This document shows positions 1-60,790 of a DNA stretch of 64,000 nt, one piece after another. This stretch comes from Candidatus Poribacteria bacterium. Lineage in GTDB: Bacteria; Poribacteria; WGA-4E; WGA-3G. The notes under the pieces were generated by a model. It was not told the origin of the DNA. It worked only from the letters and a program-made list of their open reading frames with translations, and searched no databases. The DNA is taken from positions 2,169,838 through 2,233,837 of the forward strand of contig OZ251518.1 in assembly GCA_965242965.1 (NCBI GenBank), written 5' to 3'. The position numbers and the translations under genes were made by a program. How positions within the stretch are numbered: the stretch's first letter is position 1; every line of letters begins with the position of its first letter.

Positions 1-918
1 GCCGGGGAGCGCGCCGTTATCACTCGTGACGAAAATGAGCGTGTCATCGGTTTTGCCGGTGCGTTCCAACGCCGCCATTACTTGTCCCACCATCCAATCA
101 ACGAGCCAAACCAGATCGCCGCGAGGCCCGGCACTGCTTTGTCCTCGTGCGAAGTCTGGCACGACTGCCTCTGTGCACGGTTCATGCGGCGCGGAAGGAG
201 TGAGATAGAGGAAGAAGGGTGCATCCGCCTCGGATTGTCCTTCAATGTATTCCACTGCCTTTTGCGCGATACTCGGGTCGGCGTTTTTATGTTCCCAACT
301 CGGTGCCATCATGCCGGGACGACTCGTAAACTCTGGGACCTCGTGATAGACGTTGGGGATTTCCACAAACGCGTCATTCTCTATGAAGCCGTAGGGAGGC
401 TGGCAGGTGGGGCATCCGGCGTTGCCGTAGAAATAGTCAAAGCCTAAATCAACGGGACCGCCTGTTAACGGCGCGGTGAAGTCAATATGTTCCTCTAGTT
501 CGCGGCTGGCGTTCCCCCACGGTAGCGGCGAGTTAAAATCGTAATCGTAACCGGGCACCGTTGAAAAGCCGAGCCCTAGGTGCCATTTGCCGACGCATGC
601 GGTGTTGTAACCAGCACTTTTCAGCAGGCTTGCTACCGTTGCGCGTTCCGGCTCAATGAGCGGCGGTTCATAGCCGTAAAGCACGCCGTGTTTGAGGCGG
701 CTTCGCCAGCAGTATCTACCGGTGAGGACACCGTATCGGGTGGGCGTGCAGACAGCGGAGGGAGAATGCGCGTCGGTGAAGCGGATTCCCTCCCGCGCGA
801 GTTTGTCCATATTCGGCGTTGGAATTTTCGAGTCGGAGTTATAGCATCCGACATCGCCGTATCCCATATCGTCCGCCATGATAAAAACGATGTTTGGAGG
901 TGAAGTTTGCTTTTGCAT
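1..918 (-). CDS. arylsulfatase-family sulfatase, N-terminal ~306 aa (3' end lies beyond the window edge)
   Basis: Hand translation of the minus strand from the ATG at 918..916 gives MQKQTSPPNIVFIMADDMGYGDVGCYNSDSKIPTPNMDKLAREGIRFTDAHSPSAVCTPTRYGVLT... with the sulfatase C-T-P-T-R active-site motif. Further downstream it reads ...LIEPERATVASLLKSAGYNTACVGKWHLG... The frame stays open to position 1; the ORF track omits it because it runs off the edge. Confidence 0.85.
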   Translation of the reverse strand, partial: MQKQTSPPNIVFIMADDMGYGDVGCYNSDSKIPTPNMDKLAREGIRFTDAHSPSAVCTPTRYGVLTGRYCWRSRLKHGVLYGYEPPLIEPERATVASLLKSAGYNTACVGKWHLGLGFSTVPGYDYDFNSPLPWGNASRELEEHIDFTAPLTGGPVDLGFDYFYGNAGCPTCQPPYGFIENDAFVEIPNVYHEVPEFTSRPGMMAPSWEHKNADPSIAQKAVEYIEGQSEADAPFFLYLTPSAPHEPCTEAVVPDFARGQSSAGPRGDLVWLVDWMVGQVMAALERTGKTDDTLIFVTSDNGALPG

Positions 919-940: not shown

Positions 941-2014
941 TCACTTTTGGAATTTCGCCTTTAATTCCGCCAGTTCATTCTCAATGGACGCTTCTTCGGC
1001 ATAACCGGCGAATTCCCGTTCACGTTTGGCATCCGTGAAATCAACATCCGCTTCCGCCGCTGCCTTTGCCAAAGTGGATGCATCGGATACGTCCTGCTCC
1101 ATCTTTTCAAGCAGTTCAAACGCTCTGTTATCCTGAACTTCTTCCAGCATCTGCCGGAGATGTTCGTGCGCATTGACGTTTGTGTGCTGCGCGATGACGA
1201 CATCTCGCTTTCGCTGAGTCTCCGCCGTTTTTTGCTGGAGTGTCTCTAATAGTGCAGTGAGTTGCGCGACGATTTGTTGCTGCTCCGTCCATTGCGCTTT
1301 ATATCGGCTTGCGAGTTGTCGGTATTCGTTGCGCCGTTTCAGGTCTTCGCGTGCCAGGTCTTCGCGGTCGGCTTGGATAGCGATAGTGGCGCGTTCTTCG
1401 CACCGTTCGGCTTGCGCGAGCGCGCCTTCATAAGCATCCCGCAACTGCTTTTCTATGCCAATAGATGCATCCACTTTCTGTCGCGCTTCAGTCAGTTGAT
1501 TCGTCATTTCAAGAATGGCATCGTCTAGCACACTTTCTGGTTCTTCGGTTTCGGGAACTTCTACTTCCTCCGGTTCTGGTTCCGCTTCCACAACAACCGT
1601 GCGCGCCAACTTATCCCCGAGTCTTTGCCGCTTTTGCCCGAAGGACCAGATCAGATCGAGAGGTTGGAGAACTAGGCCGGTAAAACGGCGCACGAACGCA
1701 TCTTTGAAGGTGCAAGGTTCGCCATCTTTGAGTCGGACTACCCGCAGCGACAGCAGCCTTTTGCCGAAACCCTGTCCGTTTCTGAGTCCGTCCATAAAGA
1801 GTGCGCCGAATGTCCACAACGCAAAAGATGCACCCGAAAAAAGGATAGATGCCGCGTCGTCGGACATATCGTAATGCAGCAATGCAGCTAACATAAGCAA
1901 CATCATTTGGACTGCAAATAACAACGCGCCATCAATGAAGAGCGCGACGGTGCGTGCCATTCGGGAACCCAAGGTGAACTTTTTTCCGGCAATTTTGATA
2001 GTCGGCATGAGCAA
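941..2014 (-). CDS. membrane protein with N-terminal RDD-family domain fused to a PspA/IM30 (Vipp1, ESCRT-III-like) coiled-coil domain
   Basis: 357-aa ORF. The N-terminal ~150 aa is hydrophobic with an RDD-like pattern (R..ALFIDGAL..., ...RLGDKLARTVVV). An acidic linker (EAEPEPEEVEVPETEEPE) follows. The C-terminal ~190 aa is collinear with PspA: ADREDLAREDL resembles PspA REDLARAAL, and the C-terminal ENELAELKAKFQK resembles PspA FAELKAD...LAQLKAKMKQ. Confidence 0.6.
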   Translation of the reverse strand: MLMPTIKIAGKKFTLGSRMARTVALFIDGALLFAVQMMLLMLAALLHYDMSDDAASILFSGASFALWTFGALFMDGLRNGQGFGKRLLSLRVVRLKDGEPCTFKDAFVRRFTGLVLQPLDLIWSFGQKRQRLGDKLARTVVVEAEPEPEEVEVPETEEPESVLDDAILEMTNQLTEARQKVDASIGIEKQLRDAYEGALAQAERCEERATIAIQADREDLAREDLKRRNEYRQLASRYKAQWTEQQQIVAQLTALLETLQQKTAETQRKRDVVIAQHTNVNAHEHLRQMLEEVQDNRAFELLEKMEQDVSDASTLAKAAAEADVDFTDAKREREFAGYAEEASIENELAELKAKFQK

Positions 2015-2039
2015 TTTCCTCCGAGAGGGATGCGTGCGC

Positions 2040-2437
2040 TCGCGCTGCGTCGGGCGAAGGAGTTAGCGCGTTCGCTCGGGTTCAGTGTCGGCGCGGACCG
2101 GTTTCTGCTGAAATTTCGTCTTTCAATATAGAGACTCCAACCGGCAAAAAGGATAGTAACATTCTGCTTTCCCGGTAGGAGAGACCTCCAGGTCTCGATG
2201 CAACCTCCCCGTAGGAGAGACCTCCCGGTCTCGATTTCTGCCGCCCGCTGTCTGCAATTCAGGAGCAGGTGCTCCTGAACTACAGGCGGCGCGCACCCGA
2301 GCCCTGTAGTTCGGGTGCGCCTGCACCCGAACAGGTTAAGGTATCTCCTAGCCAGCGGGCATCGAGACCAGGAGGTCTCTCCTACTTAGAGCCATCGAGA
2401 CCGGGGCGCGCCTACCTCTCATCCTCAAGAACTTGAT
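2040..2437. repeat. intergenic repeat block (family B x4, family D)
   Basis: GGTAGGAGAGACCTCCAGGTCTCGATGCAA, CCGTAGGAGAGACCTCCCGGTCTCGATTTC and inverse copies at 2360..2400. Family-D dumbbell at 2262..2335. Confidence 0.75.
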
Positions 2438-2698
2438 TCACCGGAAAGAAGCATCGCTGATGTGCACATTTACCGGTGGCGGGCCGCCGAGTTCAATATC
2501 CATCAGCACAGGAATTGAGGCTGGCGGCGGAACAGCCGTTCCTTCCGCCTGTAGTGCCTCAATGTGGAGTTGAATCGCTTCCACAATCAAGGTGCGCACC
2601 TCGTCCAAGTTCTCGCCGACAGCGACGCAGCCGGGCAAGTCTGGGAGGTAAGCACCGTAACTCTCCTCGCCTTTTTCAAAAATGACGACATATTGCAT
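2438..2698 (-). CDS. HicB-like antitoxin (UPF0150 family), orphan
   Basis: 86 aa: MQYVVIFEKGEESYGAYLPDLPGCVAVGENLDEVRTLIVEAIQLHIEAL matches the HicB N-domain consensus (Y.V.FE.dEDGgY.a..PDLPGC...G.TlEEA..n..EAI.lhlE). It starts 8 bp after the stop of the upstream oxidoreductase gene. No HicA-like ORF is nearby. Confidence 0.7.
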   Translation of the reverse strand: MQYVVIFEKGEESYGAYLPDLPGCVAVGENLDEVRTLIVEAIQLHIEALQAEGTAVPPPASIPVLMDIELGGPPPVNVHISDASFR

Positions 2699-2706
2699 GG
2701 CATTCT

Positions 2707-3765
2707 CTACAACTGCGGCACCGTCACTGCCACCTCGCGGCCGCCGTTTTCAGAGGAGTCAATAACTCCCTGAATGATAACGTTGGTAAGCATCACGCCG
2801 TAAGGTTCAATAGGCGACGGTTTGCCCTCGCGCACGGCATCGACAAACGCTGCGTCTTCCGCCCGGAACACGTCAACCGATTCAAATTCGGTGAATTCCT
2901 CGTCGTGGATTTCGCCATCTTTATCGCCATAGACGCGCACGCCGTCTTGCGGCCCACGCACTTCGCCGATGCCGAGTCGGAGTCCCGCCTTTTTACCGAG
3001 GAAAATCGTGCCGCCGAGGGAGTCCATGTTCATGCACCAGCATGTCTTGAATACCATCCGCGCGCCGTTTTCAAACACCACCCAGCCGATGCCGAAATCC
3101 TCCACTTCTGTCTCGCGCAACGCCGGATTCCATGTGTTGTTCAAGCTGAGGTAGTTGGAGGTAATGCCTGACACCGCGACCGGCTTGGGATGCCCCATCA
3201 GGTAAAGTGCCGTGTCCAACGCATAAACGCCGATGTCCGCTGACGCGCCAAGCCCGGCTGTCGCTTTGCGGATGAAGCTGCCGCCGGGATTGCCGCGCCG
3301 TCTATCCGCCACGGTTTCAACGTAGTAAATATCGCCGAGGGTGCCAGCGTCAACGATTTCCTTCGCTTTGATGACTTGCGCGGAATAGCGGAGTTTGAGT
3401 CCTACCATCAAGATTTTATCGTTTTCTTGTGAAGCGCGCCACATCGCGGCGGCCGCGTCCAGCGTCGCCTCCATCGGCTTTTCGCAGAAGACATGTTTGC
3501 CGGCGTTCAGCGAAGCGACGGTGGGCGCGGCATGCACACCAGTCGGCGTGCAGACGTAGACAGCCTCAATCTCGTCCATTTTGAGCATTTCGTTGTAGTC
3601 GCTAAACGTGTGTTTGATACCCCACCGTTCTTTCGCGCGTTCCAAGTTTGCAGGGACAAGATCTGCCGCGGCGATAATCTCTGCGCCATCAATGTTCGCG
3701 AGCGTTCCGCAGTGTGCCTGCGCGATGCCGCCCGCACCAATTAACCCAAGTTTGACTGTTCTCAT
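2707..3765 (-). CDS. Gfo/Idh/MocA family NAD(P)-dependent oxidoreductase
   Basis: MRTVKLGLIGAGGIAQAHC... Rossmann N-terminus and EKPMEATLDAA motif typical of the family. The start is moved to the internal ATG (MRT) preceded by AGGAGA; the longer track ORF begins at 3795. Confidence 0.85.
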   Translation of the reverse strand: MRTVKLGLIGAGGIAQAHCGTLANIDGAEIIAAADLVPANLERAKERWGIKHTFSDYNEMLKMDEIEAVYVCTPTGVHAAPTVASLNAGKHVFCEKPMEATLDAAAAMWRASQENDKILMVGLKLRYSAQVIKAKEIVDAGTLGDIYYVETVADRRRGNPGGSFIRKATAGLGASADIGVYALDTALYLMGHPKPVAVSGITSNYLSLNNTWNPALRETEVEDFGIGWVVFENGARMVFKTCWCMNMDSLGGTIFLGKKAGLRLGIGEVRGPQDGVRVYGDKDGEIHDEEFTEFESVDVFRAEDAAFVDAVREGKPSPIEPYGVMLTNVIIQGVIDSSENGGREVAVTVPQL

Positions 3766-3811
3766 TTTATCTCCTATCGGGACCTGAAGGGCCACCTATC
3801 GGTTCTATTTT

Positions 3812-4314: not shown

Positions 4315-5354
4315 GTGAAAGCGGCACAATTCTATGGCGGAAAAGACATCAGGGTAGAAACCGTCCCAGACCCGAGTCCTCAAGAAGGAGAGGTGCTCGT
4401 GCAAGTGGAAGCGGCGGGTATCTGTGGCAGTGACCTGCACGGATATCACCATTCGCCGGAAAATCCCTTGGCCCCTCGCATCGGCGGGCACGAACTAATG
4501 GGCGAAATTCTCGATACCGGCAAAGGCACAAGCGACTCTCCCTCGCATATCAAACGAGGCAGTCGAGTTGCGATTGAACCGATTGTCCCGTGTAACTTCT
4601 GCCCGGAATGCCTCAACGGTTACTATAACATCTGCGCCAAACTGCGGCATGGCGGTGGCGGGTTTGCGGAATTCATGGTTGCCCCTGTCTCCAATGCGTA
4701 TGCGTTGCCGGCTAGCGTTTCAGTTGAGGGCGGTGCGCTGGCAGAGGTTTACGCCGTCGCCGTTCACGCTGTCAACCGCGCGATGGTTTCACCGGGGAAC
4801 GGGTTGCGATTATTGGCAGCGGTCCAGTCGGACTGACAATTGCGCAAGTGGCAGATGTTGCCGGTGCTACTTCTATCGCCATGTTAGGGAAGCCGGATGA
4901 GCCCCTCCAAATCGCCCACGAAGCGGTAGGTGCCGTGTCTATCAACGTCGATAAAACGGATGCCGTTGCGGCGATTCAGGAGTGGAGCGATGGCAGGGGT
5001 GCCGATGTCGTTTTTGAGGCAGTCGGCGGCACGGCAAATACGCTTGAACAGGCGACCGAGGTAGCCGCGAAACGGGGTAGAGTCTGTATGGTAGGAGGGC
5101 ATCGCACACCGCTTACGTTTTCGGAACGGTTCGCGCGGAGCAGAGAGCTTACTGTCATCTGGTCCTTCTGTTATGGCAGGCGCGGCGGGAAGACAGAGTT
5201 CCAAATCGCCATCGATTTACTCGCCGCTGGGAAACTCGATCCGAGTCCGTTGGTAACGCATCGGTTTGCTCTTGATGATATTAGTGAAGCGTTCGCTGTT
5301 GCTGCTGGCCGAGATGCGCACGGTTCTGTCAAAGTGCTTGTTTTTCCTAACTAG
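4315..5354 (+). pseudogene. zinc-dependent alcohol dehydrogenase (MDR family, sorbitol/threonine dehydrogenase-like) interrupted by a 1-nt frameshift
   Basis: Two adjacent ORFs (4315..4836 and 4848..5354) together cover an MDR dehydrogenase. The first carries GICGSDLHGYHH and CNFCPECLNGYYNIC (structural Zn site). Hand translation of the other frame at ~4805 gives VAIIGSGPVGLTIAQVADVAGA (GxGxxG NAD site), which continues into the second ORF. The frame switches near ccggggaacggg (4790..4805). A promoter (TTGAAA 4251..4256, 17-nt spacer, TATAGT 4274..4279) and GGAGG before the GTG start are present. Confidence 0.75.
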
Positions 5355-5633
5355 ACAAGCACACGCCACAGCCGCGGCGATCGCGGGGGACAGGCCCCCG
5401 CGCTACGGTAACCGAGAACGGTTCCTTTCACCGTAGGGCGAGGGCCTGTCCCTCGCCGTGCTATCGGGCACACGTGCGCTCAGCACCTCTGTAGGGCAGG
5501 ATCGCCTGATCCTGCCCGTTCGGGATCAGGCGATCCCGAACTACAGTCGCTCTTAGGTCCTACGGACCTGAAGAGATGTTTTTCACGGGTGTGATCGCGG
5601 GGGACAGGCCCCCGCGCTACGGTAACCGAGACA

Positions 5634-6284
5634 ATGGAGTTCAAAAACATGGAATCACTTAATCTACTCGTTTTTGTTGGAACGGAAGGCATCTACCACG
5701 AACATGCCGGCAACGGGCAATTCCTAACGAAGATGCTCAATGCCTCCGACGATATTACTGCCACCTTTTCGCAAGACTACGATGTGCTTGCAGATGGACT
5801 CGGCGCGTATCACGTCGCGCTTTTCTACACCGATGTCGGGGAACTGACAGCGGCGCAAGAGACAGGGTTGCTGCGCTTTATCAAATCAGGCGGCGGCTTT
5901 TTCGGATTACACACAGCGGCTGCATCCTTCCGAGAATCTGAGGGATACCACGGGATGCTCAATGGGTTTTTCAACGGACATAGTCCTTACATGGACTTCA
6001 CCGTCACCGTGAGCGACACGGCGCATCCGATTACAGAAGGGCTATCCGACTTTGATGTCACCGATGAGCTCTACTATCTGAAGCATGATGCGAGTGCATC
6101 GCATCATCTTATGCATGCGTATGACGAGACGAAGGATGAAACGCATGTCATGGCGTTCCATCACCTGTATGGCGAGGGGAGAGTCTTCTACTTCGCGCTG
6201 GGGCACGATCTGGCTGTGCTTGAGAATCGGAGTTTTCAGGCAGTCATTCGCCGGGGTGTGTTGTGGGCTGGCAGACGTATTTAG
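5634..6284 (+). CDS. ThuA-domain protein (class-I glutamine amidotransferase-like fold)
   Basis: GGGFFGLHTAAASF and GEGRVFYFALGH motifs typical of the ThuA family; 216 aa. Confidence 0.7.
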   Translation: MEFKNMESLNLLVFVGTEGIYHEHAGNGQFLTKMLNASDDITATFSQDYDVLADGLGAYHVALFYTDVGELTAAQETGLLRFIKSGGGFFGLHTAAASFRESEGYHGMLNGFFNGHSPYMDFTVTVSDTAHPITEGLSDFDVTDELYYLKHDASASHHLMHAYDETKDETHVMAFHHLYGEGRVFYFALGHDLAVLENRSFQAVIRRGVLWAGRRI

Positions 6285-6810
6285 CAAGAGGGGAACAGGA
6301 TTTGCAGGATTAGCAGGATTAGCAAGAGAGGAGCAGGATTTGCAGGATTGACAAGATTAGCAAGAGGGGTCCGTAGCGCGGGGGCCTGTCCCCCGCGATC
6401 GCCCGCGTGCCCCCAGAGACTGTAGTTCGGGATCGCCTGATCCCGAACGGCGCATGGCGAGGAGAATCCTTTCCTGGCCCGTAGCGCGGGGGCCTGTCCC
6501 CCGCGATCGTTCGATCCGCGCGAAAAACGAACGCCGACAAAGGCCGTTTCCCTCCCGATCGAGGCACGGCGAGGGACAGGCCCTCGCCCTACGGTGAAAC
6601 GGAGACGGCCTTGCATACCGTAGCGCGGGGGCCTGTCCCCCGCGATCGTTCGATCCGCGCGAAAAACGCACGCCGACAAAATCCGTTTCCCTCCCGACCG
6701 AGGCATGGCGAGGGACAGGCCCTCGCCCTACGTGAAGAGAGGCGTTTTTTTAACCGTAGCGCGGGGGACAGGCCCCCGCGAACGATTTATGAAACCCCTT
6801 CATTTAAATG
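6285..6810. repeat. intergenic repeat block: family-F 9-bp tandem repeats, then two ~140-bp tandem composite family-A units
   Basis: 6290..6355 reads GCAGGATTAGCAGGATTAGCAAGAG.. GCAGGATTTGCAGGATTGACAAGATTAGCAAGAG. 6470..6610 and 6610..6750 are near-identical: ACCGTAGCGCGGGGGCCTGTCCCCCGCGATCGTTCGATCCGCGCGAAAAACG..GGCGAGGGACAGGCCCTCGCCCTACG. Confidence 0.8.
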
Positions 6811-8118
6811 TTAAATAGTGAAGAGTTCTTCAATGACATTGCCATCGTTGGCGACGCGGATGGGGCGGCCGGAACGTGAGTAGTTCTCTTCTTGCGCGTC
6901 GATGCCGAGGGCAAAACAGAGGGATGCAAACAGATCTGGCACGCCTATCGGGGCTGTGAGAACCTTAGTGCCATCGACATCGGTGCTGCCGATAACCTGT
7001 CCGCCACGGATGCCACCGCCTGCAATTACGGCAGACCAGCCGTTTGTATGATGGTCCCGGCCTTCATTCCCGTTAATCCGCGGTGTCCGCCCGAATTCGC
7101 CGAGCCATAAGACGATAGTCTGGTCCAGCAAATCGCGTGCTTCTAAGTCTTTGAGGAGCATGGCAAACGCTGGATCTACGGCGTTGAGGAGCTCTTCGGT
7201 GCGCTGAAAGTTATTTTCGTGGGTATCCCAGCCATCAAGGCTGACTTCAACGAAACTGACACCTGTCTCAATGAGCCGCCGAGCCATTAAACAGCCTTGT
7301 CCGAATTTGTTCATGCCGTAAGCCTCGCGAATCGCGATGGGCTCTTCGGAGAGGTGGAAGGCTTGGATATTCGGAGAGTTAATGAGTTGCTCCGCTTTTT
7401 TGTAAATGGCTTGATGCGCTTCGGTGCTGCGTCCTGTCCGTTTGGCGATAAAATCCTTCTCAATGGCATTGAGCATCTTGAGGCGTTCACGAAACCGGTG
7501 CCTGTCCATCTGTGCGGGATACCCGAGGTCTTCGACAGGTTCTATGGGGTTATTGACGAGGAAGGCATCGTGGGTTGCGCCGAGGAAACCGCTGGAATAC
7601 GTGGGCGAATTGATGTTAACGCAATTTGGTAGATTGGCGGCGTTGTTCTCCAAATAGTAGGAGGTTAGCGAACTGAGGGGAGGATGGTTTACGGTGCTGT
7701 CGGGTGCATAACCGGTGTGGAGCAGGTAACGCGCGCGTTCATGGTTTCCCTCGCGGGATACCATCGAGCGAATGATAGAGAGATGGTGTGCTTGCTCGGC
7801 GACGAGAGGCAGATGCTGAGAGACATGGATGTCTTTCACGCTCGTCGGTATTTCGGCGAACGGGCCGCCGTTTTTGCTGCCGGGTTTCGGATCGAAGGTA
7901 TCTAATTGACTGGCACCGCCGCTCATAAAGAGGACGATACAGTGTTTTGCGCGCGGCACAACTTCTTCGATCTGCGCGGAACCGGTGAAACCGAAGTGTT
8001 GCATGGCGACGAGGCCGAGGATGCCGCTCACGCCGCGCTTGAAAAACCCGCGCCGTGATATCTCGGTATGCCAGAGTTCGGGCGCGTCGTATTCGGGAAT
8101 CCAGACTTCTGATTTCAT
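6811..8118 (-). CDS. DUF1501 domain protein (sulfatase-like fold) with twin-arginine signal
   Basis: N-terminal RRGFFKRGVSGILGLVAMQ Tat-type signal. 435 aa with the conserved DUF1501 core (GGGIRGGQVIGSTD...). Confidence 0.8.
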   Translation of the reverse strand: MKSEVWIPEYDAPELWHTEISRRGFFKRGVSGILGLVAMQHFGFTGSAQIEEVVPRAKHCIVLFMSGGASQLDTFDPKPGSKNGGPFAEIPTSVKDIHVSQHLPLVAEQAHHLSIIRSMVSREGNHERARYLLHTGYAPDSTVNHPPLSSLTSYYLENNAANLPNCVNINSPTYSSGFLGATHDAFLVNNPIEPVEDLGYPAQMDRHRFRERLKMLNAIEKDFIAKRTGRSTEAHQAIYKKAEQLINSPNIQAFHLSEEPIAIREAYGMNKFGQGCLMARRLIETGVSFVEVSLDGWDTHENNFQRTEELLNAVDPAFAMLLKDLEARDLLDQTIVLWLGEFGRTPRINGNEGRDHHTNGWSAVIAGGGIRGGQVIGSTDVDGTKVLTAPIGVPDLFASLCFALGIDAQEENYSRSGRPIRVANDGNVIEELFTI

Positions 8119-10534: not shown

Positions 10535-10748
10535 TGTTTCCTAATTGTTTGTATCGGGCCCTGTAGGCGGGACATCCCTGTCCCGATACGGTATTGCATC
10601 GAGACCGGGAGGTCTCTCCTACTGTAGGCGGGACATCCCTGTCCCGACACTCGCCGGTAGGCGGGACATCCCTGTCCCGAAATTCGCCTACCGTAGGCGG
10701 GACATCCCTGTCCCGATACGGTATTGCATCGAGACCAGGAGGACTCGC
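10535..10748. repeat. cluster of family-C (GTAGGCGGGACATCCCTGTCCCGA) and family-B (GCATCGAGACC[N]GGAGGTCTCTCCTAC) palindromic units
   Basis: Four copies of the 24-bp family-C unit with irregular 10-38 bp spacing, plus two family-B copies. It lies between mutL and the ABC ATPase gene. Confidence 0.8.
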
Positions 10749-12791
10749 CTACTGGGATTCTAACAGATAGCAATGACACGAATGCGTCTGTGTGAGATGC
10801 GTGACCCCCGGATATTTATCCTTGCAATGCGGCATCACCTCTGGACATCGTGGATGGAAATGACATCCTGCCGGCCGGTTAATCGGCGATGGGACATCAC
10901 CTTCCAGCCGAATCTTTTCCACACTGCTCGCGGTATCCATTTTTGGGACAGCAGAGAGGAGAGCACGCGTATAGGGATGCTTCGGCGAATCAAAAATCTC
11001 CTCGGTTGTCCCGCGCTCTACGATGCGCCCCAGATACATCACGGCTACTTCATCGGCGAGGTATTCCACAACGGCAAGGTTGTGCGTGATGAACAAGTAG
11101 GTGAGTCCTAGTTCATTTTGCAAGTCTTTGAGCAGATTCAAGATTTGCGCTTGCACCGATACGTCCAACGCACTCGTCGCCTCGTCGCAAACGATGAATT
11201 CCGGATGGACGGCGAGGCATCGCGCGATGCAAATGCGCTGTCGTTGTCCGCCAGAGAATTCGTGCGGATAGCGCGTTACCATGTCCGGCGATAGCCCTAC
11301 CCGTTGCATCAGAGTGGCGACGCGCTGGCGGCGTTCTGTCGCCGATGCACCGATGTTGTGCGTCCGCATCCCTTCCTGAATAATATCTCCGACGGTTAGC
11401 CTCGGATTGAGCGAAGAGTAAGGATCTTGGAAAATAATCTGCATCCGCTGCCGATAGGGATGCAGTTGCCCGCGCGTCGCCGTCGTGATGTCAACGCCAT
11501 CGTAACGGATGTCGCCGGTGACAGGCACTCCCAGCCGCAAAATCGCCTTGCCGAGGGAGGTTTTGCCGGAGCCGGACTCCCCAACGAGTGCCAGCGTTTT
11601 GCCGCGCGGCATCGCGAGCTCAACGTTATCTACGGCGTAAACATAACCGGCGGCGCGCTTGAAAATCCCTTTCAAAATCGGATAGTGGACGCAGATGTTC
11701 TTTAATTCCAGCGCAAACTCCTGCGTCTCATCCGCGCGCTCCAAAATAACCTTCGTCTTCTCGGCAGCACTCGCAAGTGTGTCCGTTTCCAACGGAGCAT
11801 CAAACGGCGGCGCGGGGTTATAGAGGTGACAAGCGACGTTGTGCTGTGTTTCGTCTGTGGACAGCACGGGCGCGATGCTCGCGCACCCCTCCATGACTTT
11901 CGGACATCTATCGGCGAACCGGCAACCATCTCCATCGTCACCGTATTCTGTCGCTTTTGGGACGCGCCCGGTAATCGTCTGCAATTCGGCACCCCGTTTA
12001 TGCCGCGCCGGTGTAGACTCTAGCAACTTGACGGTATAGGGATGCTTCGGTGTGTTATAGAGCTGCGTCCATGTGCCCATTTCAACGATTTTTCCGGCAT
12101 ACATTACTGCAACCCGGTCCGCCATATTCGCCACGACTGCCAAGTCGTGCGTAATCAACAGCACTGCCATCTGGAATTCCTGTTGAAGGCGTTGGATGAG
12201 CTCCAGAATCTGTGCTTGGATAGTCACATCGAGTGCGGTAGTCGGTTCATCGGCGATGAGCAGGCTCGGCTGACAAGAGAGTGCCATCGCAATCATGACG
12301 CGCTGTTTCATGCCGCCGGACATCTGGTGAGGATACTCATTGTAACGCGCCGCTGGTTCCGGAATCCCCACTCGTTCTAACATCTCAATCGCTGCGTTTC
12401 GGGCGGCAGTGCCGCGGAGGTTCTGATGCAGGCGGATGGCTTCCGAGATCTGGTTCCCGATTGTGAAAACGGGATTGAGACTCGTCATTGGTTCTTGAAA
12501 GATCATTGCGATGTCGTTGCCCTGAACCTTTCGCTTTTCGATGGCGGGGAGGCGCGTGATGTCTTGGCCTTTGTAATAAATCGCGCCACCGGCGATAAAC
12601 CCTGTCGGCTGCGGCACGAGTTGGATAAGCGAGAGCGCGGTGACGCTCTTCCCGCAGCCGGACTCACCGACAAGCGCGAAGATTTCGTTCTGCCGGAGCT
12701 CAAAGGAAACACCGTCTACTGCACGTGCCACTCCTTCCGGCGTGCGAAAATAGGTTCTGAGGTTTTGGACGCTGAGCAATGTTTCGTTCAT
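10749..12791 (-). CDS. ABC transporter ATP-binding protein with duplicated ATPase domains (peptide/opine importer GsiA/YejF-like)
   Basis: Two Walker A sites (GESGCGKS, GESGSGKT) and two ABC signature/Walker B regions. Cys-rich oligopeptide-ATPase C-terminal segments are present after both domains (DGDGCRFADRCPKVMEGC..., CHFHPRCPEVMPHC). Confidence 0.85.
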   Translation of the reverse strand: MNETLLSVQNLRTYFRTPEGVARAVDGVSFELRQNEIFALVGESGCGKSVTALSLIQLVPQPTGFIAGGAIYYKGQDITRLPAIEKRKVQGNDIAMIFQEPMTSLNPVFTIGNQISEAIRLHQNLRGTAARNAAIEMLERVGIPEPAARYNEYPHQMSGGMKQRVMIAMALSCQPSLLIADEPTTALDVTIQAQILELIQRLQQEFQMAVLLITHDLAVVANMADRVAVMYAGKIVEMGTWTQLYNTPKHPYTVKLLESTPARHKRGAELQTITGRVPKATEYGDDGDGCRFADRCPKVMEGCASIAPVLSTDETQHNVACHLYNPAPPFDAPLETDTLASAAEKTKVILERADETQEFALELKNICVHYPILKGIFKRAAGYVYAVDNVELAMPRGKTLALVGESGSGKTSLGKAILRLGVPVTGDIRYDGVDITTATRGQLHPYRQRMQIIFQDPYSSLNPRLTVGDIIQEGMRTHNIGASATERRQRVATLMQRVGLSPDMVTRYPHEFSGGQRQRICIARCLAVHPEFIVCDEATSALDVSVQAQILNLLKDLQNELGLTYLFITHNLAVVEYLADEVAVMYLGRIVERGTTEEIFDSPKHPYTRALLSAVPKMDTASSVEKIRLEGDVPSPINRPAGCHFHPRCPEVMPHCKDKYPGVTHLTQTHSCHCYLLESQ

Positions 12792-20245: not shown

Positions 20246-20746
20246 TTAATTGAGGGTGTTTCATATTTCGATGCGTTCGGTAGGAGAGACCTCCTGGTCT
20301 CGATGCAATAGGCGGCGCGCCTACCGGAGCCGCGGCGGCAGAAGGTCCCCCTTCATCGTAGGGCGAGGGCCCGCGCAGGTTTCCACACGCGCAGGCGAGC
20401 CGGTTTCCCTCGCCAACGTTCGCTCGCCATGCCCTATAGGTCAGGCTCGCCTGATCCTGACCCGTTTGTGATCAGGCGAGCACAAACTACAGAGAGGGAA
20501 ACACACATCGGGACGATGGACAACGCGGGGGACAGGCCCACGCGCTACGGGAAAATCGAGACCGGGAGGTCTCTCCTACGGGAGCATCGCTTCGGGTAGG
20601 AGGGACATCCTTGTCCCGATACGCACAGTATAAAACGCATCGAGACCAGGAGGTCTCTCCTACGGGTGTGCATCGATTTATGAAACACCGTCAGTTAATG
20701 ACAACCTCACTGACGGATTACGTAAAGATACACACTTGCAACAACC

Positions 20747-27967: not shown

Positions 27968-28494
27968 TCTCGAATTTTCCGGTGTAACGCATATTCCAAC
28001 GTAGGGCGAGGACCACGGGGACACATCGAGACCGGGAGGTCTCTCCTACATAACGCATATTCCAACGTAGGGCGAGGGCCCTCGGATGCCACACGCGCAT
28101 CCGAGCGGGTTTCCCTCGCCATGCGTTTGGTTGGCAGACCTCATCACCCTTGTAGTTCAGGATTGTCTGAAGCTCTGGCACATTTGCCAAGCGATCCTGA
28201 CCCGTTCGGGAGCGGGCGCTCCCGAACTACAGAGGTGGGCCCGATACGCGCCCCCTCGCTTTTCTATCGGTATTCGTCCTTCCCCTAAGGGGCGTAAATT
28301 TATGATACACCCTCATCTAATTTTGACCCGGGCGGGCTCAATACCCAGTAGGAGAGACCTCCCGGTCTCGATGCAATATCCCGGTAGGAGAGACCTCCCG
28401 GTCTCGATGAATCACACCCCATCGGGACAAGGATGTCCCTCCTACCCAAATAACACCAGAAGTAGGCGCGCCCTCCCAGTCTCGATGCCCACTC

Positions 28495-30316: not shown

Positions 30317-30510
30317 TAGCATTTTCCTTCGGCAGGCGCGGTTCGTCCTGCGTAAGTCCTCTATGAACGGGCATTAGAAATTCCGCAACGTTCTTCCCCG
30401 TAGGAGAGACCTTCCGGGCTCGATGCATTCCGGTAGGAGAGACATCCTGGTCTCGATGTTCCCGCAGCGCGGGGGACAGGCCCCCGAGATCTCTGTCGTC
30501 TCAATGCGTT

Positions 30511-30687
30511 CTTAGGTCCTTTAGGACCTACATGTCTATAGAAAAACGTGTCGTCCCATTTTCAAGGACTTTTAGGTCCTTAATAAAAAACACGCGAGGC
30601 ATGTCAAAATCTATTAAGGACCTAAAGGACCTTAGAGCCTTTTGCGTTTCGGTTGCTATAGACATTAAGGTCCTACGGACCTGAAGA
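30511..30687. mobile_element. second copy of the family-E element, inverted relative to 13078..13249
   Basis: The reverse complement of this segment aligns base-for-base with 13078..13249 except for a few substitutions. Confidence 0.7.
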
Positions 30688-30880
30688 GAAGAAGAGACGT
30701 TTTTCCGTAGCACCGACGATGGCGAGGGACAGGCCCTCGCCCTACGATGAAGGGGGATTTCTGCCGCCGAGCCCCGGGAGGCGTGCCGCCCTATCGCATC
30801 GAGACCAGGTAGTCTCTCCTACCGGCAATAGCGCGGGGGCTGTCACCGCGACATTGAGCGATTTATGAAACACCCTCATA

Positions 30881-52849: not shown

Positions 52850-53760
52850 CGTATCGGGACAAGGATGTCCCTCCTACCCAAACGCATATCGGGACAAGGA
52901 TGTCCCTCCTACCCAAACCCGTAGGAGAGACCTCCCGGTCTCGATGCAACTTTCGGTAGGAGACCGTAGTTCGGGAGCGCCTGATCCCGAACGGCGCATG
53001 GCGAGGAGAACCCCTTCCGGGCCCGTAGCGCGGGGGTCTGTCCCCCGCGATCGCCCGCGTGCCCCAGAGACTGTAGTTCGGGAGCACCTGCTCCCGAACG
53101 GGTCAAGAGCAGGCACTCTTGACCTACAGAGGTGATGCGCGCACGCGTGCCCGAGGGCACGGCGAGGGACAGGCCCTCGCCCTACGGTAAACGGCACGTT
53201 TTTTCACCGTAGCGCGGGGGCCTGTCCCCCGCGATCGCTCGATCTGCGCGAAAAACGCACGCAGACTAAGGGCGTTTTCCCGACCGAGGCATGGCGAGGG
53301 ACAGGCCCTCGCCCTACGGTATGCGTGGCGTTTTTTTCACCGTAGGGCGGGGGCCTGTCCCCCGCGATCGTTCGCGTGCCCCAGAGACCGTAGTTCGGGA
53401 GCACCTGCTCCCGAACGGGTCAAGAGCAGGCGCTCTTGCCCTACAGAGGGGATGCGCGCACGCGGGCCCGACGGCACGGCGAGGGACAGGCCCTCGCCCT
53501 ACGGTGAAAGGAGACGGCCTTGCATACCGTAGCGCGGGGGCCCTCGCCTGCCACACGCGCAGGCGAGCGGGTTTCCCCCGCGATTGCCAGACCCGCGCGA
53601 AAAACGCACGCCAGCCAAAGCCGTTTTCCCGACCGTTGCATGGCGAGGGACAGGCCCTCGCCCTACGGTAAGCGGCACGTTTTTTCACCGTAGCGCGGGG
53701 GCCTGCCCCCCCGCGGTGGATACCGCATCCTCAGATGCTATAATCTTGTAAATCCTATAA
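52850..53760. repeat. ~0.9-kb intergenic block of family A, B, C and D repeat units
   Basis: Multiple ACCGTAGCGCGGGGGCCTGTCCCCCGCGATCG and GGCGAGGGACAGGCCCTCGCCCTACGGT units, two family-D dumbbells (53060..53140, 53385..53450), family C at 52855..52915 and family F at 53735..53790. Confidence 0.8.
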
Positions 53761-59095: not shown

Positions 59096-60162
59096 AGCCA
59101 ATGAAGCATCTGTTAGGTTTACGCCTCCTCTTCGCAACGCTTATTGCACTCGCCCCGGTAGGCGGGATTTGTAACCCCGCGCCTGTCGCCAATACAGAGG
59201 AAACTATGGAGCACACAATGTATTCAGTCAGCGACAAAATCGTCGATGGGTTTCACGTTTACGCCTTACAGCAGGACGAAACCACCGTCGCCGAAATCGT
59301 CCCCGCGCTCGGAAATAACTGCTACGCCTTCCGAGTTGCCGGGCGCGTCTTAATAGATGAACCGCCCGATCTGGCGACGTTGCAAGAACGTCCCACCGCC
59401 TACGGAAACCCTATATTGTTTCCGTTTCCAAACCGCATCCGCGATGGCAGCTGGACGTTTGAAGGCGAAACCTATCAGTTTGACAAACCGCCCGATGCAC
59501 CGACGACTATCCACGGGTTGTTGCTCAACCGTCCCTATCATGTCCAACGTCACGCAGCAGACGAAAACGGCGCGACGCTTGTCTGCACGCTCAATTCGCA
59601 CGATGTGCCAGATATTGGCAGACAGTATCCGTTTCCGTTTCACATTGAGATAACGTATACCCTCAAAGATTCCGTGTTGACGATGGGCGTTTCTATCAAA
59701 AACACCGGCAAAGGGAACATGCCGATGGGGTTCGGCATCCACCCCTATTTTCGCGTCGCGAATCCATCGCAAGCGAAAATCACCGTGCCCGCCGCGAAAT
59801 ACTGGGAACTTGACGATGTGCTAGTCCCCACAGGAAAACAACTTCCTGTCGCCGGAGCCTTGGATTTGCGGGATGGAAAGCCGTTCGTCGGATTAAAGTT
59901 GGACCACGTTTTCACAGACGTGCAATTGACAGACGGTGTAAGCCGATGCATCATCGGGAATGAATTGGTGATGGAATCGGATGCCATCTTCAGAGAACTC
60001 GTCGTCTATACACCACCGGGAAGGGATGCCATCTGTTTTGAACCGTATACCTGCCCGACAGACGCGATTAATTTGGAGGCGAAAGGCATTCCTGCTGGTA
60101 TCATTGTGCTGTCACCGGAAGAAACTTTCGCCGCTACCGTTCGGATTCTGCGCGTTCGGTAG
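59092..60162 (+). CDS. aldose 1-epimerase family protein (galactose mutarotase-like), secreted
   Basis: Signal peptide. YGNPILFPFPNRI and GFGIHPYF are conserved in the aldose epimerase superfamily. Confidence 0.75.
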   Translation: MKPMKHLLGLRLLFATLIALAPVGGICNPAPVANTEETMEHTMYSVSDKIVDGFHVYALQQDETTVAEIVPALGNNCYAFRVAGRVLIDEPPDLATLQERPTAYGNPILFPFPNRIRDGSWTFEGETYQFDKPPDAPTTIHGLLLNRPYHVQRHAADENGATLVCTLNSHDVPDIGRQYPFPFHIEITYTLKDSVLTMGVSIKNTGKGNMPMGFGIHPYFRVANPSQAKITVPAAKYWELDDVLVPTGKQLPVAGALDLRDGKPFVGLKLDHVFTDVQLTDGVSRCIIGNELVMESDAIFRELVVYTPPGRDAICFEPYTCPTDAINLEAKGIPAGIIVLSPEETFAATVRILRVR

Positions 60163-60790
60163 GAGAGCCCTCCTGGTTTTGATTTTTCAACATATCGGGA
60201 CAAGGATGTCCCTCCTACCCAAAACGATGTTCCCCGTAGGAGAGACCTCCTGGTCTCGATGCATTCCCGTAGGAGAGACCTCCCGGTCTCGATGTTCCCG
60301 TAGCGCGGGGGCCTGTCCCCCGCGCGCGTTGGGATACGCGAGCAATGGCGAGGGACAGGCCCTCGCCCTACGGTGAGGGGTGGTGTGTTTATCGTAGCGC
60401 GGGGGCCCTCGGATGCCAGACGCGCATCCGAGAGGGTTTCCCCCGCGATCTCATCGTCACGATGTGTGTTTCCGCCTCTGTAGTTTGTGATCGCCTGATC
60501 ACAAACAGGTCAGGATCTGGCGATCCTGACCTACAGAGCCTGGCGCACGCACGCTGGCGAGGGACAGGCCCTCGTCCTACGGTGAAGGGGTGGTGTTTTT
60601 ATCGTAGTAGGAGGGACATCCTTGTCCCGATACGCACAGCAACAAAACGCATCGAGACCCGGAGGTCTCGCCTACTGGGGGCATCGAGACCCGGAGGTCT
60701 CGCCTACTGGGGGCATCGAGACCCGGAGGTCTCGCCTACCGAACGCTGGGTTGACATCCATCGCGGATTTGTGGTATCCTATAAACTATA
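60163..60790. repeat. intergenic repeat block including a 32-bp x3 tandem of family B
   Basis: 60667..60740 is GGGGGCATCGAGACCCGGAGGTCTCGCCTACT x3. Family C (60195..60225), B (60235..60295), A (60300..60420, 60550..60600) and D (60475..60540) are also present. Confidence 0.8.

Follow-up and report, generated by a model that had tools for sequence, protein, structure and literature searches.

A Poribacteria-wide protein family that joins an RDD membrane module to a PspA/IM30 core lacking helix alpha0

The window (the whole stretch of DNA that was analysed, 64,000 nucleotides from Candidatus Poribacteria) carries near its beginning a minus-strand gene whose product joins an RDD membrane module to a PspA/IM30 core, here called RDD-PspA. 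According to Pfam, its neighbours in the window are a sulfatase, a HicB-like gene, a Gfo/Idh/MocA oxidoreductase, an ADH and a ThuA gene. The ADH gene near the fusion is split into two ORFs. The features of the locus are as follows.

1..918, minus strand: sulfatase gene, running off the window (Pfam Sulfatase, 149.7 bits from residue 8); begins 22 nt past the RDD-PspA stop
941..2008, minus strand: RDD-PspA fusion CDS, 355 aa from ATG at 2008 to the stop TGA at 941-943 (placed from homologue starts and relatives)
2018..2022, minus strand: Shine-Dalgarno-like GGAGG, just 3 nt from TTG at 2014 (direct sequence reading)
2063..2122, minus strand: remnant of an upstream tandem paralogue, the last 19 codons KTKFQQKPVRADTEPERTR and a stop (tblastn with P0009 residues 388-406, 89% identity, E 7e-8)
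2170..2405, no strand: REP-like palindromic cluster, GTAGGAGAGACCTCC[A/C]GGTCTCGAT, sitting where the lost paralogue was (repeats; comparison with L001)
2707..3795, minus strand: Gfo/Idh/MocA oxidoreductase, conserved upstream neighbour of the array (Pfam)

The mechanical ORF list gives one uninterrupted frame at 941..2014 of the minus strand, that is, 357 aa counted from TTG at 2014. Because homologues begin with the N-terminus MPTIKIAGKK and GGAGG sits 9 nt 5' of ATG at 2008, the CDS is likely 941-2008, and this ATG, rather than the TTG, is probably the true start. The open frame of the original prediction stands, with its start codon probably to be moved. A sigma-70 promoter scan around the gene found no promoter-like site, and an intrinsic terminator scan around it gave a single terminator-like match, within the CDS, which is no more than chance expects. 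Downstream, the sulfatase has an in-frame stop 5' of its ATG and no room for a signal peptide; judging from the gene layout, it is probably co-transcribed with RDD-PspA. Of 78 loci, 73 have a sulfatase on the same strand after the fusion (median gap 38 nt) and 74 have a Gfo/Idh/MocA gene on the same strand upstream. This conserved co-orientation is unexplained by a membrane-repair role.

In blastn against L001, about 1.29 kb corresponding to the upstream paralogue is missing from the window. By this comparison and the remnant, a single RDD-PspA copy is left here and a second, upstream tandem paralogue has been deleted. REP-like elements occur in 30 copies in the window, with 0.06 expected. No second full PspA or RDD copy was detected by tblastn in the 64 kb window, and no PspB-, PspC- or PspF-type partner lies beside the gene. 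PADLOC, searched for defence-system components, matches neither the fusion protein nor the adjacent HicB-like ORF.

The N-terminal part of the protein is made up of the following features.

1586..2008, minus strand: RDD membrane module, residues 1-141 (Pfam RDD, AF2, invariant columns, R/D/D triad)
1874..1951, minus strand: predicted TM helix 1, residues about 20-45 (Kyte-Doolittle mean >2; Eisenberg H 0.69, muH 0.11; AF2 helix 16-44)
1799..1861, minus strand: predicted TM helix 2, residues about 50-70 (hydropathy; H 0.71, muH 0.14; AF2 helix 50-70)
1643..1708, minus strand: amphipathic third RDD segment, residues 101-122 (mean H 0.15, muH 0.37; K/R-rich flanks; AF2 helix)

The RDD family is defined by a conserved Arg and two Asp in or around two TM helices. 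In RDD-PspA, the Pfam RDD match reaches 50.6 bits (gathering cutoff 24.1; E 3.2e-13) over residues 17-137, covering positions 3-136 of the 137-position profile. Within the fusion family, R19 and D132 of the triad are invariant, the conservation of D26 is 90% or more, and these columns are also conserved when aligned with 16 stand-alone RDD proteins. The module opens with a beta-hairpin, which is followed by TM1 and TM2, by a cytoplasmic loop of conserved sequence (DG-x3-GQGxGK...RVxRLKDGxP), and by the amphipathic helix and an end motif (RLGDKxAxTVVV). It is modelled by AF2 with pLDDT of about 80-88; a separate RDD-only model has a pLDDT of 78. The third segment contains the invariant residues D103, R107, R108, Q115, P116 and D118 and, in the model of the full-length protein, has a kink at Q115-P116; it is predicted to be interfacial or re-entrant, not transmembrane. 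The RDD assignment of the original prediction is upheld, although "polytopic" overstates a domain in which only two helices are truly transmembrane and a further one is amphipathic. Besides these, the invariant RDD residues include D73, G74, G78, G80, G82, K83, R92, D95, G96, P98, R129 and, from the triad, D132. In the family alignment, about 30 invariant residues fall in the cytoplasmic loop and amphipathic helix, whereas the TM helices vary, and this suggests that RDD does more than anchor. A Foldseek search of the RDD-only model against the PDB gave nothing significant, the best match being TM regions of the Pex2/10/12 peroxisomal complex (E 0.5).

Between the RDD module and the PspA core lies a short tether.

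1541..1585, minus strand: flexible, acidic, proline-rich linker, residues 142-156 (15 residues; AF2 pLDDT <50 at 144-154), in the place of PspA helix alpha0

The linker reads EAEPEPEEVEVPETEEPES. It is predicted to be disordered, and its composition bears out the acidic linker that had been proposed. Linkers across the family have 13-34 aa, with means of 6.5 D+E, 2.6 P and 0.5 K+R. Both the PspA_IM30 profile and the PDB alignments begin at position 20, so the PspA match starts exactly after alpha0; in all paralogues tested, the profile match starts at positions 13-23. The amphipathic helix alpha0, with which soluble PspA and Vipp1 attach to membranes, is absent, as had been suspected from the sequence, and the RDD module with its tether holds exactly the position of alpha0. 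By core homology the protein belongs to the PspA family and its architecture is atypical; the missing alpha0 defines the variant. PspA deleted for alpha0 (alpha1-5) still makes rods that never enclose lipid (bioRxiv 10.1101/2025.06.13.659447), which provides a rationale for replacing alpha0 by another membrane coupling.

The remainder of the protein is the PspA part.

944..1540, minus strand: PspA/IM30 (ESCRT-III-like) core, alpha1-alpha5, residues 157-355 (Pfam, PDB sequence matches, Foldseek)
1184..1540, minus strand: predicted alpha1 / alpha2+3 hairpin, residues 157-212 and 216-275 (AF2 pLDDT 90-95; superposition on 4whe)
1001..1012, minus strand: alpha5 residues F333 and Y336, aligned with Nostoc Vipp1 F197 and L200 (Interface 3)

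The original prediction had placed PspA_IM30 at residues about 170-357 and quoted the motifs ADREDLAREDLKRRNEY and ENELAELKAKFQK, which are both found in the protein. A Pfam search gives PspA_IM30 at 88.1 bits (gathering cutoff 33.9; E 8.3e-25) over residues 155-354 and profile positions 20-217 of 220, so that the segment is indeed collinear with the PspA helices. Likewise, a PDB sequence search aligns residues 154-354 with chain residues 20-216 of cyanobacterial Vipp1/PspA (E about 1e-16). Such scores lie far outside chance, and the refuting outcome named beforehand, a lack of any significant PspA_IM30 match, did not occur. The protein terminates right after alpha5, 3 residues past the position aligned with Vipp1 residue 216, and the alignment to PDB Vipp1 shows no Vipp1-type C-terminal extension (helix alpha6). 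The suggested AlphaFold test for an ESCRT-III hairpin returned the high-confidence hairpin listed above, with which the first 17 Foldseek matches are all Vipp1/PspA (probability 1.00), followed by CHMP1B/IST1. Superposition on E. coli PspA(1-144) (4whe) gives an rmsd of 2.6 A over 120 columns and a TM score of 0.76. Helices alpha4-alpha5 are predicted by AF2 at low confidence (pLDDT 40-55). The hairpin-tip motif A-x-REDLAREDL-xx-RNEY is invariant or nearly so in the family; in alpha5, Y336 is invariant and F333 almost so. Mutation of F197/L200 severely inhibits Vipp1 self-assembly (PMC8281802). Apart from alpha0 the core is complete, and its putative self-assembly contacts, the hairpin tip and alpha5, are conserved.

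Fusions of this kind form a narrow family that extends across Poribacteria. Only 24 representatives out of 1.84 billion matched at E<=1e-30, and a check of phylogenetic distribution assigned all 77 species-level genome loci to Candidatus Poribacteria. The family comprises more than 500 proteins with a mean column identity of 56%; one member, P0001, is 96% identical to the protein of the window. Both domains occur in the same continuous architecture in all 120 matches listed in one search and all 68 in another. Usually 2-5 tandem paralogues form an array between the Gfo/Idh/MocA gene and the sulfatase. The occurrence throughout the phylum and the tandem arrays were not visible from the single sequence read for the original prediction. 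The most divergent member, P0142, has FlgD_ig/Por_Secre_tail neighbours, unlike other loci, and its nearest relatives are Poribacteria fusions with identity of 40% or less. The closest plain PspA representatives (identity about 35%) come from Chloroflexia, Coatesbacteria and Armatimonadota.

Several features bear on the membrane topology. Mean K+R is 7.4 in loop 2, 6.1 at the N-terminus and 4.9 past segment 3, compared with 1.1 in loop 1. The number of hydrophobic segments rises from 2 to 4 in long paralogues, which makes the TM count even in all variants. Furthermore, natural chains of the types RDDx2-PspA, RDDx4-PspA and RDD-PspA-RDD-PspA were found, and such concatenations require termini on the same membrane side. 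Together with the amphipathic character of segment 3, the charges, even counts and concatenations argue strongly for an N-in/C-in topology with a cytoplasmic PspA core. The predicted topology therefore agrees with the earlier proposal that the RDD anchor supplies membrane attachment. To our knowledge, all PspA and Vipp1 proteins work on the cytoplasmic or stromal side.

The reading that we moderately favour is that RDD-PspA is a constitutively tethered, polymerising integral-membrane PspA/IM30 protein specific to Candidatus Poribacteria. The RDD module would be embedded in the cytoplasmic membrane, its two termini facing the cytoplasm and its loop carrying a small beta-sheet, and the short acidic, proline-rich tether would join it to the complete alpha1-alpha5 core. 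From the conservation of the hairpin and alpha5 contacts, we infer that the core may polymerise through them on the cytoplasmic membrane face, as a permanently anchored remodelling polymer. As every subunit is covalently embedded, the proposed polymer would stay coupled to the bilayer permanently and would need neither the insertion of alpha0 nor a separate adaptor (such as PspB/C, LiaI, PspM or YdjG/H/I). Its effect might be local membrane stabilisation or remodelling, in the form of maintenance, repair, or inward tubulation and scaffolding. The 2-5 tandem paralogues in most relatives, together with the chains that have 2-4 RDD modules, suggest mixed polymers with tunable anchor density. A more far-reaching version, which we think unlikely, would be a multi-paralogue, membrane-integral ESCRT-III-like system in which heteropolymers set curvature by anchor density and composition, acting as a constitutive scaffold or inward-tubulating machine rather than a stress-recruited repair patch, with RDD as a lipid- or ion-sensing partner of PspA.

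A somewhat improbable alternative reverses the roles of the two domains: RDD may be the effector, an ion/solute transporter or a sensor of membrane state, and the PspA core an accessory part with a regulatory or sensing task, gating or clustering RDD under membrane stress. No parts of the protein are more invariant than the cytoplasmic loop and amphipathic helix of RDD, stand-alone RDD proteins carry the same motifs, antiport was reported for one RDD protein (PMC5996927), and the presence of 2-4 RDD modules per PspA raises RDD dosage. The idea that stand-alone RDD genes elsewhere adjoin a canonical pspA gains no support from the nearest two whose contigs were usable (n=2), as neither has a pspA neighbour; one is surrounded by Gfo/Idh/MocA and glycosidase genes, and the other lies inside a nuo operon (proton-pumping complex I), which also fits an RDD effector. 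However, two TM helices per module are small for a transporter unless it is oligomeric, and these helices are poorly conserved within the family. Moreover, the PspA core retains its assembly residues and the full alpha1-alpha5 set, and RDD has no structural analogue (best Foldseek E 0.5), so that a transport fold receives no positive support. It is quite doubtful that the core is instead a tethered coiled-coil scaffold that places presumably co-transcribed cytoplasmic enzymes, the sulfatase and Gfo/Idh/MocA, at the membrane, for example beside sulfated-glycan uptake, with no remodelling. The constancy of both neighbours, the short gap to the sulfatase and the sulfatase's lack of room for a signal peptide would fit such a scaffold, but their conservation could be mere synteny inside one phylum, the divergent P0142 has other neighbours, and the stand-alone RDD gene P0150 adjoins Gfo/Idh/MocA without any PspA. 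A generic scaffold would also have no need of the conserved PspA-specific assembly motifs.

Another alternative concerns topology: were the third RDD segment a true TM helix, the protein would have three TMs, N-in/C-out, and a periplasmic-facing PspA core. In the RDD-only AF2 model, a single unbroken helix of 22 residues spans positions 101-122, and stand-alone RDD proteins have a more hydrophobic stretch at the equivalent place. We nevertheless regard this arrangement as very unlikely, in view of the mean hydrophobicity (0.15) and moment (0.37) of the segment, its four invariant charged residues and K/R-rich flanks on both sides, the even counts kept by the RDDx2 and RDDx4 chains and by the variants with 2 or 4 segments, and the location generally known for PspA and Vipp1. 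In addition, a highly charged helical domain of 200 residues is an unlikely export substrate. Effectively refuted is an artefact, whether a frameshift or assembly error that joined an RDD gene to a 5'-truncated pspA, or a generic coiled coil mistaken for PspA. Prior caution alone speaks for it, along with the nearby split ADH, a sign that sequence errors or pseudogenes exist locally. Against it, the 120 and 68 matches listed and 77 independent genomes all show the same continuous architecture, and the linker is in frame with conserved character. The PspA match also exceeds the Pfam threshold by 54 bits, and the fold search picks out Vipp1/PspA specifically.

For PspA and Vipp1 as well as for eukaryotic ESCRT-III, the way in which the N-terminal helix alpha0 links the polymer to the membrane is under active study. 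In this family, nature has exchanged alpha0 for a transmembrane module on a PspA core that is complete in other respects, kept the exchange across a phylum, and amplified it into tandem arrays and multi-anchor chains. The family offers a testable system for two questions: does permanent anchoring alter the shape of the polymer (rod, ring or carpet), and do the paralogues assemble into heteropolymers in the manner of eukaryotic ESCRT-III subunits? If the multi-paralogue system is real, it would be a bacterial parallel to multi-subunit eukaryotic ESCRT-III and a natural experiment on the purpose of alpha0. For the RDD family, which is poorly understood, the fusion also provides a first clear link to a function. 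Since Poribacteria are uncultivated sponge symbionts, such work would depend on heterologous expression. A phylum-wide design with a TM anchor in place of the detachable alpha0 was not found in the literature searched. RDD is unmentioned in two PSP phylogenomic surveys (PMC11237479 among them), in an ESCRT-III review and in an ESCRT evolution paper, and we found no Poribacteria paper discussing phage-shock proteins in the relevant sense; the architecture is absent from the published PSP and ESCRT-III surveys. It had been called unusual beforehand, and it is indeed rare: RDD is missing from the fusion list of a PSP survey in which >98% of PspA homologues are single-domain (PMC11237479).

RDD-PspA resembles PspA, IM30(Vipp1) and LiaH (PF04012, ESCRT-III superfamily) in its collinear alpha1-alpha5, predicted hairpin, REDLAR tip motif and alpha5 Interface-3 residues, and it is like PspA in having no Vipp1-type C-terminal extension. 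Unlike these proteins, it carries an integral-membrane RDD and an acidic tether in place of alpha0 and occurs in tandem arrays instead of as a single soluble protein. It also differs from the classical Psp (PspF-ABC) and Lia (LiaIH-GFSR) systems: NCBIfam equivalog scores are far under the cutoffs (PspA, 60.4 against 243 bits; LiaH, 46.1 against 380 bits), and PspF/B/C or Lia neighbours are absent beside the gene. In several bacteria, PspA-type proteins are held at the membrane by integral-membrane partners (PMC11237479, PMC8581546, PMC10936438), namely PspB/PspC in E. coli, LiaI and YdjG/H/I in B. subtilis, and PspM/Rv2743c in M. tuberculosis. The membrane-held state is shared with RDD-PspA, whereas those partners are separate polypeptides that conditionally recruit a soluble, alpha0-bearing PspA; in RDD-PspA the anchor is covalent, comes from the unrelated RDD family and replaces alpha0. 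Rare fusions in the ESCRT-III superfamily, Snf7-RND transporter in some Actinobacteria, PspA_IM30-NlpC/P60 and PspA-PspAA (PMC11237479), are precedents that include a membrane protein, but partner domain, lineage and position differ, and none of them exchanges alpha0 for a small two-TM module.

Stand-alone RDD proteins (PF06271, e.g. YckC-type; 137-150 aa) have in common with the fusion the R...D...D triad, the motifs GQxxGK and RLGDKxAxT, and 35-45% identity. They finish at the TxVV motif, where the fusion continues with 215 residues of linker and PspA core. For one RDD protein, from Halobacillus andaensis, cation Na+(Li+,K+)/H+ antiport was reported (PMC5996927). That protein is a distant member, and the report is the only functional claim for the RDD family. 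Finally, the N-myristoylated CHMP6/Vps20 is the nucleator of eukaryotic ESCRT-III. By analogy only, both it and RDD-PspA are ESCRT-III-type subunits permanently attached to the bilayer N-terminally, ahead of alpha1, by a lipid in CHMP6/Vps20 and by a TM domain here.

The RDD-PspA gene lies in an unbroken open reading frame on the minus strand (941..2014; 357 aa counted from TTG). This frame stood as originally predicted, but the start is most likely not TTG 2014 but ATG 2008, which gives a coding sequence of 941-2008 (355 aa), because relatives begin with MPTIKIAGKK and GGAGG at 2018-2022 is 9 nt ahead of the ATG and just 3 nt ahead of the TTG. Residues are numbered here from the ATG unless noted; Pfam and PDB-sequence coordinates follow the TTG and are 2 higher. 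Both predicted domains were recovered by Pfam, each above its curated threshold: an N-terminal RDD domain (PF06271, 50.6 bits, cutoff 24.1, residues 17-137) and, with a significant match, a C-terminal PspA_IM30 domain (PF04012, 88.1 bits, cutoff 33.9, residues 155-354, profile positions 20-217 of 220). It was the lack of such a PspA_IM30 match that would have refuted the original prediction. The top PDB sequence matches were cyanobacterial Vipp1 and PspA (E ~1e-16; query 154-354 against chain residues 20-216), and E. coli PspA(1-144) was matched with E 3e-5. Judged by core homology, the protein can be assigned to both the PspA/IM30 and the RDD family.

AlphaFold2, run on a 73-sequence family alignment, predicted the ESCRT-III-like hairpin (alpha1, 157-212; alpha2+3, 216-275) with a pLDDT of 90-95, followed at lower confidence by alpha4 (281-325) and alpha5 (343-353). 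The RDD module (pLDDT ~80-88) contains strands 3-6, 9-13, 88-92 and 137-141 and helices 16-44, 50-70, 101-113/115-122 and 130-134, and residues 144-154 are disordered (pLDDT <50). In a Foldseek search of the PDB, the top 17 matches were all Vipp1/PspA chains, CHMP1B/IST1 and further ESCRT-III proteins coming next. With E. coli PspA(1-144) the hairpin could be superposed over 120 columns to 2.6 A (TM 0.76); a structural analogue of the RDD module was not found in the PDB. The amphipathic helix alpha0, claimed to be missing, is indeed absent: the PspA match begins at profile position 20, and the place of alpha0 coincides exactly with the linker (EAEPEPEEVEVPETEEPES). Across the family this linker has 13-34 residues, of which on average 6.5 are acidic, 2.6 are proline and 0.5 are basic, in agreement with the acidic linker first proposed. 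The protein ends 3 residues past the alpha5 alignment with the PDB sequences, without the Vipp1-type C-terminal extension.

In the hydropathy profile, two helices (~20-45 and ~50-70) stand out as strongly hydrophobic and a third segment is only weakly so. For the positive-inside rule, K+R was counted over the 73 sequences, with means of 6.1 at the N-terminus, 1.1 between TM1 and TM2, 7.4 in the post-TM2 loop and 4.9 after the third segment. Since the third segment (101-122) combines low mean Eisenberg hydrophobicity (0.15) with a high moment (0.37), against ~0.7 and ~0.1 for TM1/TM2, and carries invariant D103, R107, R108, Q115, P116 and D118, it appears to be an amphipathic, interfacial or re-entrant helix and not a TM span. 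Furthermore, long paralogues have four hydrophobic segments ahead of the DGFKNGQG motif instead of two, and therefore the count stays even. Chains with several RDD modules were found repeatedly, on independent contigs: RDDx2-PspA (P0123 and P0129), RDDx4-PspA (an 878-aa gene at 5295-7931 of locus L080) and RDD-PspA(hairpin only)-RDD-PspA(full) (P0126 and P0127, of which P0127 is a Poribacteria protein at NCBI). The modules of such a chain can share one orientation only if both termini of each RDD module are on the same side. Together, these four independent lines strongly support a cytoplasmic PspA core tethered at the membrane's inner face. A topology with three TMs and a periplasmic core, against which all four lines point, is very improbable. 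The original prediction is confirmed as an observation and supported in its interpretation.

The fusion has a narrow distribution. In a search of 5.8 billion clustered proteins, each of the best 120 matches carried both domains (120/120), and the named entries among them were Candidatus Poribacteria 'PspA/IM30 family protein'. When a set clustered at 50% identity (1.84 billion representatives) was scanned exhaustively with HMMER, only 24 had E<=1e-30; the matches weaker than this separated cleanly into stand-alone RDD (~140 aa) and ordinary PspA, the latter aligned from their own residue 20 and thus retaining alpha0. All 77 loci from a GTDB scan with one genome per species were from Poribacteria (77/77). 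The nearest plain PspA representatives (~35% identity) were from Chloroflexia, Coatesbacteria and Armatimonadota. P0142, the member that diverges most, is a single-copy singleton (L078, 8001-9044) in another gene context, with FlgD_ig/Por_Secre_tail proteins and a PALP enzyme as neighbours; its closest relatives, <=40% identical to it, are fusions from Poribacteria, and 68/68 matches have both domains. This deep-branching sequence may extend the fusion beyond sponge-associated Poribacteria.

When open reading frames were called and clustered in 78 loci (the 77 GTDB loci and the window), the RDD-PspA cluster had 163 members in all 78, in the same orientation, revealing tandem arrays that add to the original prediction. 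There were one, two, three, four and five copies in 16, 43, 16, 2 and 1 loci, respectively, and the median distance between copies was 58 nt; the five genes of L080 include the RDDx4-PspA gene. All of the paralogues tested (10/10) have RDD and a PspA domain beginning at profile positions 13-23. Co-oriented with the array are a Gfo/Idh/MocA oxidoreductase upstream (74/78 loci, median gap 152 nt) and a sulfatase downstream (73/78, median gap 38 nt).

The window has the same frame, in the order ThuA, ADH, Gfo/Idh/MocA, RDD-PspA and sulfatase, with these features near the fusion gene:

1-918, minus strand: sulfatase, beginning 22 nt past the RDD-PspA stop
2063-2122 (codons 2066-2122), minus strand: paralogue remnant, last 19 codons KTKFQQKPVRADTEPERTR and stop (tblastn)
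2438-2698, minus strand: HicB-like antitoxin ORF, 86 aa (Pfam HicB_lk_antitox, 49.7 bits)

The sulfatase opens directly at its catalytic PNIVFIMADDMGYGD motif and is apparently cytoplasmic, because a signal peptide would not fit; its close linkage to the RDD-PspA array extends across the phylum. No further PspA or RDD was detected in the 64 kb by tblastn, leaving one RDD-PspA copy. The remnant has 89% identity (E 7e-8) to P0009, the upstream paralogue that the closest relative, L001, keeps in full; DNA comparison with L001 showed that ~1.29 kb, nearly the whole gene, is absent from the window and replaced by ~290 bp of REP-like repeats. The HicB-like gene, a ~240 bp insertion between Gfo/Idh/MocA and RDD-PspA relative to L001, had no PADLOC match. 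The locus is thus evolutionarily dynamic in copy number. The REP-like palindrome (core GTAGGAGAGACCTCC[A/C]GGTCTCGAT, with the hairpin GAGACCT..AGGTCTC) is dispersed in 30 copies over 64 kb (<=2 mismatches; 0.06 expected), clustered intergenically in direct and inverted orientation, one cluster being exactly at the site of the deleted paralogue:

2170-2405, 10608-10752, 16046, 20280-20663, 28035-28445: REP-like sites
30400-30822, 36964, 38829, 52863-52935, 60159-60739: REP-like sites

The zinc-type ADH is in two ORFs, 4315-4836 (ADH_N) and 4848-5354 (ADH_zinc_N), both on the plus strand, and the syntenic L080 gene encodes a single 343-aa product; the split could reflect a frameshift, an in-frame stop, a pseudogene or a sequence error.

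In PspA and Vipp1, alpha0 is the membrane-binding element. It lines the lumen of Vipp1 rings (PMC8281802), and Synechocystis PspA without it (alpha1-5) still forms rods, none of which enclose lipid (bioRxiv 10.1101/2025.06.13.659447). Mutation of Vipp1 F197/L200 severely inhibits self-assembly (PMC8281802); the equivalents here are F333 (>=90% conserved) and Y336 (invariant), and the hairpin-tip motif A-x-REDLAREDL-xx-RNEY is invariant in the family. The polymerising core is thus retained. Because these residues are conserved and alpha0 is replaced by RDD, we infer that the core would polymerise on the cytoplasmic face while the RDD module couples the polymer permanently to the bilayer. With such an anchor, neither alpha0 nor a separate recruiter (of the PspB/C, LiaI, PspM or YdjG/H/I type) would be needed, and no gene for a recruiter of these types lies near RDD-PspA. 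The tether, being acidic and rich in proline, would give the core flexibility and probably keep it away from the anionic membrane surface before assembly. The tandem paralogues and the chains with several RDD modules suggest that polymers may be mixed and their anchor density adjustable. As a whole, this mechanism, an anchored, polymerising PspA, is the reading we consider reasonably probable. Its domain composition, the lack of alpha0, the fold prediction, the conservation, the distribution and the arrays are results of the analysis, and the topology (with strong support), the polymerisation and the physiological role are inferences from them.

An artefact or generic coiled coil is effectively excluded. 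RDD could instead be the effector, a transporter or sensor regulated by PspA: ~30 invariant residues fall in its cytoplasmic loop and amphipathic helix, its TM helices being variable, a distant RDD protein is reported as an antiporter (PMC5996927), and a close stand-alone RDD gene lies within a nuo operon. We regard this as unlikely, and as more doubtful still a tethered scaffold for the putatively co-transcribed cytoplasmic sulfatase and oxidoreductase, to which their flanking of the array in most loci would point. The stand-alone RDD, P0171 (217 aa; L084, 6001-6654), is close to the RDD module of the fusion and is encoded in the complex I operon between NADHdh (NuoH-like) and Oxidored_q3 (NuoJ-like).

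The architecture is unusual, as was claimed: of ~2,500 PspA homologues in a phylogenomic survey, >98% have the PspA_IM30 domain alone, and the fusions described there are with NlpC/P60 and PspAA, together with an actinobacterial Snf7-RND transporter; RDD is absent from its text and supplement (PMC11237479). A second PSP survey, an ESCRT-III review and an ESCRT evolution paper do not mention an RDD-PspA fusion, and database annotation of the fusions goes no further than 'PspA/IM30 family protein' or 'hypothetical protein'. RDD-PspA is thus a real, conserved architecture, undescribed in the open-access literature searched. By NCBIfam, it is an equivalog of neither E. coli PspA (60 bits, cutoff 243) nor B. 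subtilis LiaH (46 bits, cutoff 380); lacking the C-terminal extension it is not a Vipp1, and it differs from the PspA/IM30 family in missing the usual alpha0.
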